From Escherichia coli (GTDB lineage Bacteria; Pseudomonadota; Gammaproteobacteria; Enterobacterales; Enterobacteriaceae), in assembly GCF_003334405.1 (NCBI RefSeq), contig NZ_QOWM01000001.1: a stretch of 64,000 nt of DNA, one strand, 5' to 3'. Within the stretch, counting starts at the first letter, position 1, and the number at the start of each line of letters is the position of its first letter. A program made the translations under genes and the position numbers. This document shows, piece by piece, positions 9,850-46,365 of this stretch. The notes under the pieces are model-generated. The model worked only from the letters and a program-made list of their open reading frames with translations, was not told the origin of the DNA and searched no databases.

Positions 9850-9955
9850 TACACGCCGGATGCGGCGTGAACGCCTTATCCGGCCTACGAAATCGTGCTA
9901 ATTCAATATATTGTGGGCTCCACGTAGGCCTGATAAGCGTAGCGCATCAGGCAGT
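9850..9955. repeat. BIME: two inverted REP (repetitive extragenic palindrome) units
   Basis: REP-type palindromes gccggatgcggcgtgaacgccttatccggcctac and gtaggcctgataagcgtagcgcatcaggc; the six-frame ORFs here are spurious. Confidence 0.85.
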
Positions 9956-19834: not shown

Positions 19835-20746
19835 GTGAGTACATTAGAACAAACAATAGGCAATACGCCTCTGGTGAAGTTGCAGCGAATGGGGCCGGAT
19901 AACGGCAGTGAAGTGTGGTTAAAACTGGAAGGCAATAACCCGGCAGGTTCGGTGAAAGATCGTGCGGCACTTTCGATGATCGTCGAGGCGGAAAAGCGCG
20001 GGGAAATTAAACCGGGTGATGTCTTAATCGAAGCCACCAGTGGTAACACCGGCATTGCGCTGGCAATGATTGCCGCGCTGAAAGGCTATCGCATGAAATT
20101 GCTGATGCCCGACAACATGAGCCAGGAACGCCGTGCGGCGATGCGTGCTTATGGTGCGGAACTGATTCTTGTCACCAAAGAGCAGGGCATGGAAGGTGCG
20201 CGCGATCTGGCGCTGGAGATGGCGAATCGTGGCGAAGGAAAGCTGCTCGATCAGTTCAATAATCCCGATAACCCTTATGCGCATTACACCACCACTGGGC
20301 CGGAAATCTGGCAGCAAACCGGCGGGCGCATCACTCATTTTGTCTCCAGCATGGGGACGACCGGCACTATCACCGGCGTCTCACGCTTTATGCGCGAACA
20401 ATCCAAACCGGTGACCATTGTCGGCCTGCAACCGGAAGAGGGCAGCAGCATTCCCGGCATTCGCCGCTGGCCTACGGAATATCTGCCGGGGATTTTCAAC
20501 GCTTCTCTGGTGGATGAGGTGCTGGATATTCATCAGCGCGATGCGGAAAACACCATGCGCGAACTGGCGGTGCGGGAAGGAATATTCTGTGGCGTCAGCT
20601 CCGGCGGCGCGGTTGCCGGAGCACTGCGGGTGGCAAAAGCTAACCCTGACGCGGTGGTGGTGGCGATCATCTGCGATCGTGGCGATCGCTACCTTTCTAC
20701 CGGGGTGTTTGGGGAAGAGCATTTTAGCCAGGGGGCGGGGATTTAA
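19835..20746 (+). CDS. cysM: cysteine synthase B / O-acetylserine sulfhydrylase B (303 aa)
   Basis: GTG start giving MSTLEQTIGNTPLV...; PLP-lysine motif SVKDR present; the track ORF is extended upstream into the REP. Confidence 0.9.
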   Translation: MSTLEQTIGNTPLVKLQRMGPDNGSEVWLKLEGNNPAGSVKDRAALSMIVEAEKRGEIKPGDVLIEATSGNTGIALAMIAALKGYRMKLLMPDNMSQERRAAMRAYGAELILVTKEQGMEGARDLALEMANRGEGKLLDQFNNPDNPYAHYTTTGPEIWQQTGGRITHFVSSMGTTGTITGVSRFMREQSKPVTIVGLQPEEGSSIPGIRRWPTEYLPGIFNASLVDEVLDIHQRDAENTMRELAVREGIFCGVSSGGAVAGALRVAKANPDAVVVAIICDRGDRYLSTGVFGEEHFSQGAGI

Positions 20747-20779
20747 GGATTAATAGCATCGGAGACTGATGACAAACGC

Positions 20780-20885
<106 letters not shown>

Positions 20886-20934
20886 AAACAAAGCGCACTT
20901 TTTTAACAGTTGTTGCTGCCGACAAATGCAGTAT

Positions 20935-21669
20935 TTAATTTTCGTGAGGAAACGCCGTAAGGTCATCAATCATTTTTTGAAGTATTGGTGAGTCCTGACC
21001 GTCACCCCATTGAAGAATTTTTGCGGTAAGCTGATGACGCGCTAGTGCATTGAGTCCCATCTTTTTAAGTTTATGGGAGATTTTACCCATGACTTTAATC
21101 TGACCGAATGCAGTTGCGTAGGTAATCATATTGCTCTGGATAGTGCTCATTTCATCGACTAGTAATTGCGCACGAACATCCTCTTCAAGAATACTGTCCA
21201 TAGCGATGTATTTCATACCCCACATAGTTTCAATTAACATTTGAGGGAAATCAGCACAGTCCAGATCCGGCTCTTTACGGAGGCTATTTTCAAGAACGTT
21301 TAGAGCATCAGCACCTTCATCGCTGCCAAAAGGAGATTCTTCATCCCAGCAACACATATAAAGTGGATCAGTAAAATGGCACTGGAAGTTTGGGTGTGAC
21401 GTTTTAACATGTAACCCAATTTCTTCATCATCAAAATAGTAGCGATCCATGAAGTTAAACTTTGGATCTTCTTGATAGCCTTTCTTCATTTTTGCGGCAA
21501 TCAATTTACTGGCTTCTTTCAGACACTGTTCTTCATTATCGAACTCTTTTGTCTGGAATTTACCAATACTACCTACCTTGCCATAGTTGACAGCTAAACT
21601 ATCCCCTTCGTAATCTATCCACCAAAATTTATTCGATTTTTCATCGTGATAAATAAAGCGTTTTTTCAT
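20935..21669 (-). CDS. yfeS: WGR-domain protein YfeS (244 aa), function unknown
   Basis: N-terminal WGR-like segment (WWIDYEGDSLAVNYGKVGSIGK); locally AT-rich gene. Confidence 0.8.
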   Translation of the reverse strand: MKKRFIYHDEKSNKFWWIDYEGDSLAVNYGKVGSIGKFQTKEFDNEEQCLKEASKLIAAKMKKGYQEDPKFNFMDRYYFDDEEIGLHVKTSHPNFQCHFTDPLYMCCWDEESPFGSDEGADALNVLENSLRKEPDLDCADFPQMLIETMWGMKYIAMDSILEEDVRAQLLVDEMSTIQSNMITYATAFGQIKVMGKISHKLKKMGLNALARHQLTAKILQWGDGQDSPILQKMIDDLTAFPHEN

Positions 21670-21701
21670 GTTACCTCCTGTAAATGCCTTCCCAAAGCGG
21701 A

Positions 21702-22076
21702 TTAATTTCCTTCCGCAGGCACCGTTTTATCCGTCTGCGCAATTAACGCATGTAAAAAAGGCTGTGCGTTCTCATCGCTCTTACCGGGGATCTTCACAAT
21801 ATACGGCTTCCCAGTAATCGATGACGACGAAGCAACCTTATCAATAAACTGCTCGGCAGTGTCAATGCGGTTACGGGTATTGCCGAGCTTCAGACGCAGA
21901 TGAGAAACCGCTTCATAGCAGGTATGTTCATCACCGTTGCGCACAAATATCAAATCCTTTTTCTGTGCTAATCCCTCCAGCATGGCGTTGATGCGGGCTT
22001 CTTCATGGGCAGTTAACTTCGCGTAAACGGGGAGTGTCATTAGTAGTGTAATGACCAGACAAATGATTTTCTTCAT
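21702..22076 (-). CDS. yfeK: secreted protein YfeK (124 aa), function unknown
   Basis: Cleavable signal peptide ([19 protein letters not shown]); AT-rich; immediately upstream of yfeS on the same strand. Confidence 0.8.
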
Positions 22077-22101: not shown

Positions 22102-22144
<43 letters not shown>

Positions 22145-22180: not shown

Positions 22181-23032
22181 ATGAGTAGTTTGTTGTTGTT
22201 TAACGATAAGAGTAGGGCACTGCAGGCGGATATCGTCGCCGTGCAGTCGCAGGTGGTTTACGGCAGCGTGGGCAACAGCATTGCCGTGCCTGCTATCAAA
22301 CAGAACGGCCTGAATGTCTTTGCCGTGCCGACGGTATTGCTGAGCAATACGCCGCATTATGACACTTTCTACGGTGGTGCGATTCCGGACGAATGGTTTA
22401 GCGGCTATTTGCGTGCGCTTCAGGAGCGTGATGCGCTGCGCCAACTTCGTGCTGTAACCACGGGCTATATGGGAACGGCATCGCAAATCAAAATCCTTGC
22501 CGAGTGGCTGACTGCGCTACGCAAAGACCATCCTGACCTATTGATCATGGTCGATCCGGTGATTGGCGATATTGATAGCGGAATTTATGTCAAACCTGAC
22601 CTTCCCGAAGCGTATCGACAATATTTACTGCCGCTGGCGCAGGGAATTACCCCCAATATCTTTGAGTTGGAAATCCTGACCGGTAAAAATTGCCGCGATC
22701 TCGACAGTGCCATTGCTGCCGCAAAAAGTCTGCTTTCAGACACATTAAAATGGGTGGTGGTTACCAGCGCCTCCGGTAATGAAGAAAATCAGGAGATGCA
22801 GGTTGTGGTGGTCACTGCCGACAGCGTGAATGTCATTTCCCATTCACGGGTAAAAACCGACCTGAAAGGGACTGGCGACCTGTTTTGTGCTCAGCTCATC
22901 AGTGGCTTGCTGAAAGGGAAGGCGTTAACCGATGCAGTGCACCGAGCGGGGTTGCGCGTACTGGAAGTGATGCGCTACACCCAGCAGCATGAGAGCGATG
23001 AATTGATTTTGCCGCCGCTGGCGGAAGCATAA
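22181..23032 (+). CDS. pdxK: pyridoxal/pyridoxine/pyridoxamine kinase PdxK (283 aa)
   Basis: Ribokinase-like PfkB fold; 283 aa. Confidence 0.93.

Positions 23033-46264: not shown

Positions 46265-46365
<101 letters not shown>

Follow-up and report, generated by a model that had tools for sequence, protein, structure and literature searches.

yfeS of Escherichia coli is strain-variable cargo of the core yfeK operon and a candidate orphan immunity gene

We analyzed a 64,000-nucleotide stretch of Escherichia coli DNA (hereafter the window) in which the region under study has the K-12 gene order cysPUWAM, yfeS, yfeK, pdxK and crr-ptsI and is 100% identical to MG1655. Between the end of cysM at 20746 and the start of pdxK at 22181, the list of open reading frames and the RefSeq annotation place yfeS (20935-21669, minus strand, 244 amino acids), labeled a WGR domain-containing protein, and yfeK (21702-22076, minus strand, 124 amino acids, DUF5329), labeled a YfeK family protein, exactly where the initial annotation had put them. 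We find that yfeS is strain-variable, horizontally exchanged cargo under selective constraint that was added to the core, sigma-E-controlled yfeK operon, and that genes of the YfeS family recur as cassettes in polyimmunity arrays and fuse with other array families. By analogy with its neighbors in these arrays, YfeS could act as an orphan immunity protein by binding a toxin that enters the cell, a proposal that we regard as evenly balanced between right and wrong.

The initial annotation had described yfeS and yfeK as a two-gene islet with a composition suggestive of old horizontal acquisition. This description had to be given up: yfeK is a vertically inherited core gene, and only yfeS is foreign and strain-variable. 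yfeS is found in 1387 of 5426 complete E. coli genomes (25.6%) and is missing from the other ~74%; its E. coli alleles form two groups, of at least 99% and ~97% identity. Comparison of the junctions delimited a presence/absence segment of 966 nt (20748-21713) that comprises a bacterial interspersed mosaic element (BIME), yfeS, the spacer and the 3' end of yfeK. The segment takes in the last three sense codons and the stop codon of yfeK, and the empty allele has the 7 nt ATTATTG in its place. Empty E. coli alleles leave 2 nt between the stop codons of cysM and yfeK, and this junction was the same in the four strains compared, ATCC 25922 among them.

The C-terminus of YfeK tracks yfeS in two genera, reading PAEGN in filled alleles (124 residues) and PAQ in empty ones (122 residues; positions 21702-21713, alignment A3). 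Because the C-terminus differs with the yfeS allele, the allele boundary lies inside the yfeK coding sequence. The 8-nt sequence GGATTAAT occurs at both ends of the 966-nt segment. A simple mobile-element insertion was considered and rejected, since ATTATTG does not correspond exactly to what excision or target-site duplication would leave. The 124-residue terminus of filled alleles resembles those of Klebsiella and Superficieibacter, which hints that the empty allele is derived rather than ancestral.

The second genus is Pseudocitrobacter, which carries both alleles with the same junctions as E. coli. In its filled locus (L016) the order is yfeK (PAEGN), yfeS, BIME and cysM, while in the empty P. 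faecalis locus (L018) yfeK (PAQ) adjoins cysM. Between K-12 and Pseudocitrobacter, the synonymous divergence (dS) of yfeS was 0.19, compared to 0.45 for cysM, 1.27 for yfeK and 1.50 for pdxK. In 60-nt windows, the two genera were ~96% identical across yfeS and 42-52% identical across the 5' end of yfeK and the region upstream. Given a dS far below that of its flanks and these window identities, yfeS moved between the genera long after their split, presumably by homologous recombination through conserved flanks. The ratio of nonsynonymous to synonymous divergence (dN/dS) was 0.13-0.16 for yfeS, and the value of 0.13 between K-12 and Pseudocitrobacter indicates that the gene is under purifying selection.

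Some lineages show decay of yfeS, which is a dispensable gene. In E. coli LR-03 (NZ_AP027474.1, hits H1 and H13) an IS1A lies within yfeS and splits the gene, and Shigella flexneri has entries in which the yfeS product is shortened or frameshifted (P0042; Q0T288). A seemingly plasmid-borne yfeS, 70% identical (H38, locus L104; NZ_CP098226.1, pZ0117EC0005-3, PLSDB), was set aside: the record holds ptsI-crr-pdxK-yfeK-yfeS-cysM-cysA in chromosomal order with many frameshifts, which suggests a piece of chromosome that was wrongly assembled or is rich in errors.

Both genes had been called AT-rich, which proved correct for yfeS only. The GC content of yfeS is 39.2%, and 36.7% at third codon positions (GC3), in a window with 51.6% GC in which cysM and pdxK have a GC3 of 59-62%. 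yfeK, in contrast, is close to normal (GC 46.4%, GC3 51.2%) and comparable to crr (47.3% and 53.5%). YfeK matches DUF5329 (PF17263, E=5.6e-31) in Pfam and passes the NCBIfam model PRK10318/NF007646 with 276.7 bits against a cut-off of 171. Its orthologues in Pseudocitrobacter, Klebsiella, Superficieibacter, Salmonella, Citrobacter and Enterobacter are 65-85% identical, with 85% in Pseudocitrobacter, ~80% in Klebsiella and 74% in Salmonella. yfeK is thus an ancestral core gene of the Enterobacteriaceae, vertically inherited and of host-like composition, and for this reason the two genes do not make up an islet. A uniform distribution and the codon usage of the host, named in advance as grounds for abandoning the idea of an old horizontal acquisition, were found for yfeK and not for yfeS. 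The acquisition itself stands for yfeS but not for yfeK, and it is neither old nor fixed.

The YfeS family is scattered over distant lineages. Beyond Escherichia and Pseudocitrobacter, its closest members to the K-12 protein share 45-58% identity and come from Firmicutes and Bacteroidota, with others in Fusobacterium and Neisseria. A search of 5.8 billion proteins returned named enterobacterial homologues from Escherichia and Shigella only, and the next-best named relatives, 44-58% identical, came from Paenibacillus, Dysgonomonas, Lysinibacillus and Clostridium. A scan of 100,044 species, with one genome each, returned 137 loci, of which the enterobacterial ones were limited to Pseudocitrobacter and an Escherichia sp. 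fragment. The others belong to Paenibacillus, Bacillus, Listeria, Clostridia, Bacteroides, Flavobacterium, Fusobacterium, Neisseria and Eikenella, along with one Pseudomonas, Actinomycetota, Synergistota and a Methanomassiliicoccaceae archaeon. This scattered spread is the pattern of a mobile accessory gene.

A profile of the YfeS C-terminal domain (C-domain) collected 768 representatives among 1.84 billion proteins, in which the domain stands alone (~170 residues), follows one or two WGR modules, or is joined to extra N-terminal domains. It is also fused to a downstream DUF4253, in one case together with an N-terminal DUF4240 and TPR; DUF4240 and DUF4253 are families found in the arrays described below, not proven immunity domains. 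In Paenibacillus macquariensis (L101, 9001-10350), a 449-residue protein consists of a WGR domain, the YfeS C-domain and ~200 additional residues that resemble SMI1/KNR4 immunity domains by eye and have no precomputed Pfam hit; this protein may be a fusion of the "polyimmunity protein" kind. A C-domain homologue with 45% identity is also encoded on a Methanomassiliicoccaceae contig, a metagenome-assembled genome from termite gut (L054, 4215-4712), and this archaeal copy could reflect a cross-domain transfer or a binning artefact.

The most informative evidence on function came from the genomic company of these relatives. The contig collection has 97 blocks with a Bacteroidales homologue that is 54% identical to YfeS (P0026). 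In the Bacteroidales loci L005-L008, a 379-residue XerD-like tyrosine recombinase (Phage_integrase/SAM_1/SAM_4) is followed by 10-20 small co-directional genes, and the GC content falls from 41% in the recombinase to 32-34% in the arrays. Repeats of ~50 nt that resemble attC sites, of the form TAACAA-(imperfect palindrome)-CATTA, follow nearly every gene and flank the YfeS-like cassette on both sides. The arrays that hold this homologue also encode Imm10, Imm19, Barstar, SUKH_5/SMI1_KNR4, Macro, DUF4304 and Cys_rich_CPCC proteins. In L005 (1500-12729), whole cassettes are duplicated within the array at 91-100% identity (D1-D3), a pattern that suggests ongoing cassette shuffling.

Acquired interbacterial defense loci of the recombinase-associated type (rAID-1) are defined by Ross et al. 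(bioRxiv 10.1101/471110) by a 5' XerD-like recombinase that shares 44% identity or more with B. fragilis BF9343_RS08045, at least two co-directional genes, an array GC content of at most 41% and integron-like repeats; some of their members were shown experimentally to neutralize toxins of the type VI secretion system, according to the same work. The Bacteroidales arrays appear to match rAID-1 in their recombinase, co-directional genes, skewed low GC content and repeats, the recombinase having been matched by domain architecture and length only. More broadly, arrays with YfeS family members fit the "heterogeneous polyimmunity loci" described by Zhang et al. 2012 (PMC3482391).

Comparable gene sets accompany YfeS relatives in other phyla. 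The Paenibacillus arrays contain Imm10, DUF2750 (equivalent to Imm16), five SMI1_KNR4/SUKH genes, Imm68, DUF1963 and DUF4303, and an array on a JGI metagenome contig contains WapI and Cys_rich_CPCC. The Fusobacterium array comprises DUF4241, DUF4253, DUF1963, DMP19, DUF2262, DUF4259, SUKH-3, Ank and SUFU. In Neisseria (L106, 7131-16762; also L060-L064), the gatC-gatA-gatB operon is interspersed with 7-8 small accessory genes, namely WGR/YfeS-like, DUF6714, DUF4303, DUF2262 twice and then SUFU, so that a gene set of polyimmunity type rides on an essential housekeeping operon.

The Ross et al. preprint (bioRxiv 10.1101/471110) does not name WGR in its main text, the searched text of Zhang et al. 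(PMC3482391) names neither WGR nor yfeS, and our literature search returned no paper tying WGR or yfeS to immunity.

YfeS itself is composed of two domains. An AlphaFold2 model built from a 55-sequence alignment was of high confidence, with a pLDDT (predicted local distance difference test) of 96 and a pTM (predicted template modeling score) of 0.92. Residues 1-72 (21454-21669, minus strand) form a WGR domain of four strands and a helix with an isoelectric point (pI) of 8.6. The WGR-like N-terminus noted initially was borne out by Pfam (PF05406, E=1.2e-17, residues 9-71), by a profile search of the PDB and by the modeled fold, which superposes on solved WGR domains, and the domain was present in 55/55 aligned homologues. 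Its fold is similar to that of the WGR domains of PARP1 and PARP3. The suggested link to PARPs and nucleic acids is retained in this resemblance of fold and goes no further, as WGR is the only Pfam match in YfeS, with neither a PARP catalytic (ADP-ribosyltransferase, ART) nor a regulatory domain, and no ART-like structural neighbor of the C-domain was found.

Residues 73-244 (20938-21453, minus strand) form an all-helical domain with a pI of 4.6. Sequence searches of Pfam, NCBIfam, PADLOC, PHROGs and the PDB assigned this C-domain to no family, and its structural neighbors were TPR-like or designed repeats only. The earlier description of the C-terminal region as acidic and uncharacterized was therefore accurate, but its cysteines are mostly unconserved: C107 is present in 46/55 homologues, and C97, C106 and C138 in 1-2/55 each. 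The most conserved stretch is residues 89-123 (21301-21405, minus strand), which reads KTSHPNF...Y..C.DEE.PFGSDEG.D.L (alignments A1, with 55 homologues, and A2). T90, H92, Y104, P113, G115, D117, G119, D121, K192 and G195 are invariant in the 55-homologue alignment, which spans several phyla, and the mean column identity across phyla was 53%. The family as a whole is acidic, with a median pI of 4.9, and YfeS is predicted to lack a signal peptide and to be cytoplasmic.

Two possible relatives of the C-domain were weighed. Matches to it in AFDB50 were uncharacterized family members only, some of them named MolR or molybdate-regulator. A relationship to MolR was rejected: hhalign of the C-domain against a 1262-residue MolR-like WGR+DUF4132 protein gave a probability of 0.8%, which indicates that the MolR names are carried over between annotations, and the WGR+DUF4132 proteins of E. 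coli match residues 3-74 of YfeS only. For DUF4259 (PF14078) the hhalign probability was 6-23% (E=9e-4 at 23%), with an alignment at the level of a motif only, and 1/31 members of the C-domain family had a weak DUF4259 match in Pfam (E=0.065).

In E. coli, yfeS lies downstream of yfeK. The 32-nt spacer between the genes (21670-21701, minus strand) carries, 5 nt ahead of the ATG of yfeS, a strong Shine-Dalgarno sequence (AGGAGGT). A terminator scan found no site in this spacer, and its two minus-strand matches both lay within the yfeK coding sequence; the lack of a terminator-like site in the spacer is consistent with co-transcription of yfeK and yfeS. About 35 nt upstream of the yfeK ATG, a predicted sigma-E-type promoter, yfeKp, reads GAAACTT-N16-TCAAA (22110-22137, minus strand) and has a GGAACTT-like -35 element, a 16-nt spacer and a TCAAA -10 element. 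The sigma-E consensus used for this comparison is reportedly that of Rhodius and colleagues from 2006. Published work describes yfeK-yfeS as one sigma-E-dependent operon (PMC2685091, PMC11502571) and assigns it to the sigma-E regulon (PMC2685091, PMC11502571, PMC3326320). Overexpression of yfeK arrested growth, while overexpression of yfeS had no effect (PMC2685091). The sole phenotype reported for a yfeS deletion is sensitivity to boric acid, which was partially complemented (PMC11502571).

The initial annotation had left both genes without function. For experimental data this is still accurate, but genomic context now offers a specific hypothesis for YfeS. Its relatives co-occur with the established immunity families SUKH/SMI1_KNR4, SUKH-3, SUFU, Imm10/19/68, Barstar, WapI and DUF2750, and we also counted in favor of an immunity role the DUF4240 and DUF4253 fusions, the acidic character of the family, the sigma-E operon and the harmlessness of YfeS overexpression. 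In our preferred reading, yfeS arrived horizontally as single-gene cargo, with or next to the BIME. Placed downstream of yfeK, it uses the yfeK promoter, two unrelated genes thereby sharing one transcript. The protein would neutralize an effector received from a rival bacterium by binding the effector's toxic domain, with the acidic conserved surface (TSHP...PFGSDEGxD) as the contact site, possibly as a nucleic-acid mimic if the toxin is of nuclease type. Control by sigma-E would raise YfeS levels when the envelope is damaged. The ideas of a nucleic-acid-directed toxin, of the acidic motif as interface and of sigma-E coupling to damage from attack are more speculative than the immunity role itself. 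The fullest version of the proposal is tentative: YfeS would belong to an uncatalogued immunity family in which a basic WGR and an acidic domain trap an effector that targets nucleic acids or ADP-ribosylates, K-12 would keep an orphan member on a sigma-E promoter so that damage switches on protection, and the allele is the one that has moved between Escherichia and Pseudocitrobacter.

Several observations weigh against an immunity role. The E. coli copy is solitary; the locus has no recombinase and no attC-like repeats, only the BIME, and with a single gene between yfeK and cysM it falls outside the definition of an array. Lone YfeS relatives among housekeeping genes, in the Dysgonomonas trp operon and at a Pseudomonas locus, mirror this arrangement. 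No Rhs YD-repeat, VENN, CdiA or PAAR motif marking a cognate toxin was found by regular-expression search within 8 kb on either side of 80 loci, a screen that did not extend to LXG, MafB or novel toxin domains, and NCBIfam searches of ten large neighbors returned no toxin model, only TPR proteins, a kinase and gatA/gatB. The conservation of the family is high for an immunity protein, and the invariant polar residues T90, H92, D117, D121 and K192 could mean an enzymatic or ligand-binding site. The immunity assignment is guilt by association with arrays in which many of the neighbors are themselves domains of unknown function, and the boric-acid sensitivity of the yfeS deletion is unexplained by it.

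The WGR domain makes it conceivable, if unlikely, that YfeS is instead a nucleic-acid-binding sensor or regulator, its WGR domain binding RNA or the ends of DNA like that of PARPs and its helical part transmitting a signal or acting as regulator. The module is basic and resembles in fold the WGR domains of PARP1 and PARP3, which contact DNA breaks, and members of the family carry molybdate-regulator names. In addition, yfeS transcripts increase after restriction-induced DNA damage (PMC2685091). However, this induction follows rpoE and the entire sigma-E regulon and is not specific to yfeS (PMC2685091), Pfam detects no DNA-binding helix-turn-helix or effector domain, and the hhalign comparison with the MolR-like protein argues against the relationship implied by those names. 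Furthermore, exchange as a cassette among recombinase-linked arrays of different phyla would not be expected of a regulator. We consider it similarly improbable that the C-domain is an enzyme or small-molecule binder, for example of a nucleotide or ADP-ribose-type ligand, with the invariant T, H, D, D and K as active site and WGR for targeting. The clustering of invariant polar residues in 89-123 plus K192, the high conservation across phyla, the recurrence of Macro domains in the same Bacteroidales arrays and the weak motif-level similarity to DUF4259 would agree with such an activity, but the domain is a plain helical bundle with structural neighbors that are not enzymes, it matches no catalytic family in Pfam, NCBIfam or the PDB, and its G/P/D-rich motif fits a structural loop or a protein-binding surface equally well.

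A patchy distribution driven by horizontal gene transfer and strain variability would also be expected of a single-gene anti-phage defense or of a phage-derived counter-defense gene, and YfeS has matches in three PHROG families and a stand-alone C-domain in short Listeria records labeled phage. Yet the PHROG matches are limited to the WGR module, no full-length homologue occurs among 50,697 phage records, PADLOC returned zero families for YfeS and for YfeK, and the neighbors of the family are of immunity type rather than restriction, abortive-infection (Abi) or CBASS-type genes, which makes a role in phage defense quite improbable. Least credible of all is that yfeK and yfeS form one module, with YfeS as antidote or partner of a growth-arresting YfeK or with a joint role in envelope stress. 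The common operon and sigma-E promoter and the opposite outcomes of overexpressing the two genes would suit such a module. Nevertheless, yfeK occurs without yfeS in most E. coli and in all other genera examined except some Pseudocitrobacter, and no DUF5329 neighbor was present at the YfeS family loci examined outside Escherichia and Pseudocitrobacter. A toxin-antidote pair was rejected because co-occurrence is not obligate, and the distribution of the genes essentially excludes the partner model. Their dS values likewise indicate different evolutionary histories, and as read from sequence YfeK is exported whereas YfeS lacks a signal peptide.

The initial annotation was right that YfeK is a small, probably secreted protein. 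A predicted Sec signal peptide covers residues 1-19 (22020-22076, minus strand), with cleavage expected before K20; its n, h and c regions and the V-x-A at -3/-1 are kept across orthologues (alignment A3), and there is no lipobox. The surroundings of yfeK form a hotspot in which small cargo genes gather. In Klebsiella huaxiensis, a gene for a 135-residue SnoaL_3/DUF4440 protein occupies the slot between yfeK and cysM (L020, 3898-4305), whereas Pseudocitrobacter has such a gene upstream of yfeK (L016/L018, 2981-3388) and, in addition, a CSS-motif/EAL gene that separates crr from pdxK.

The BIME seen initially on one side of the genes was recovered in the 188-nt region between cysM and yfeS (20747-20934) from inverted repeats, the consensus of repetitive extragenic palindromes (REPs) and Rfam matches. 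It consists of two inverted REPs at ~20785-20816 and ~20848-20883. The REP consensus has three copies in the window, where none is expected by chance, and ~39 matching places per E. coli genome. Away from the BIME, REP copies lie in the window at 9855-9888 and 46272-46305, both on the plus strand, with one and two mismatches, respectively, to the REP on the yfeS side. Rfam reports the small RNA ES036 (CssrF) in the BIME at 20807-20849 (minus strand), with 40.9 bits against a gathering score of 37.6, and a partial match below the gathering score to naRNA4, a REP-derived nucleoid-associated RNA, at 20853-20889 (plus strand). Both matches probably reflect the REP sequence itself and not a separate gene.

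Whatever the function of YfeS, the locus offers a clear-cut case of one presence/absence allele common to two genera, and it corrects the view of yfeK and yfeS as a pair. If the immunity proposal is true, YfeS would represent a new immunity family and the first non-PARP role for the WGR fold. Laboratory E. coli would then hold an acquired defense against the toxins of other gut bacteria, and expression of an orphan immunity gene would be tied to the sigma-E envelope-stress response. The family would also provide a handle on unannotated cassettes in the rAID arrays of Bacteroidales and the polyimmunity arrays of Firmicutes and Fusobacterium. yfeS is among the remaining K-12 genes without a function, and the hypothesis is cheap to test with the existing Keio deletion and ASKA clone.

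Compared to known systems, YfeS shares its WGR fold and signature in residues 1-72 with PARP1/2/3 and with bacterial WGR proteins (PF05406) such as 2RA8 from B. fragilis and MolR, and, like 2RA8 and MolR, it begins with a short WGR that is followed by a C-terminal part of variable kind. It differs from these proteins in having neither the PARP regulatory and catalytic domains nor DUF4132, and its C-domain is unrelated to 2RA8 or MolR. The C-domain is like DUF4259 in being small, acidic and helical, in occurring in the same arrays and in carrying G/S-D-x-G-x-D-x-L near its start and K-x-G-K later, although a relationship is uncertain, at an hhalign probability of 23% and with the 1/31 weak Pfam matches. 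Barstar, colicin Im proteins and DMP19 are acidic nuclease inhibitors. As an acidic cytoplasmic protein that would act by binding, YfeS may be compared to them, and Barstar and DMP19 genes occur in YfeS family arrays; the proteins have no sequence or fold relation to YfeS, so any common mechanism is by analogy. YfeK, for its part, is a full-length member of DUF5329 (PRK10318), with the 124-residue PAEGN end in K-12 as opposed to the 122-residue PAQ end in most E. coli.

The closest parallel is with polyimmunity and rAID-1 loci, since relatives of YfeS lie inside one-directional, low-GC, strain-variable arrays that in Bacteroidales are led by a recombinase and carry attC-like repeats. The family also resembles orphan immunity genes in its patchy occurrence across phyla, usually with no toxin gene alongside. 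E. coli yfeS differs from such arrays in standing alone within a host operon. It is best read as a lone orphan cassette of the polyimmunity/acquired-interbacterial-defense type, from a family not catalogued as such.

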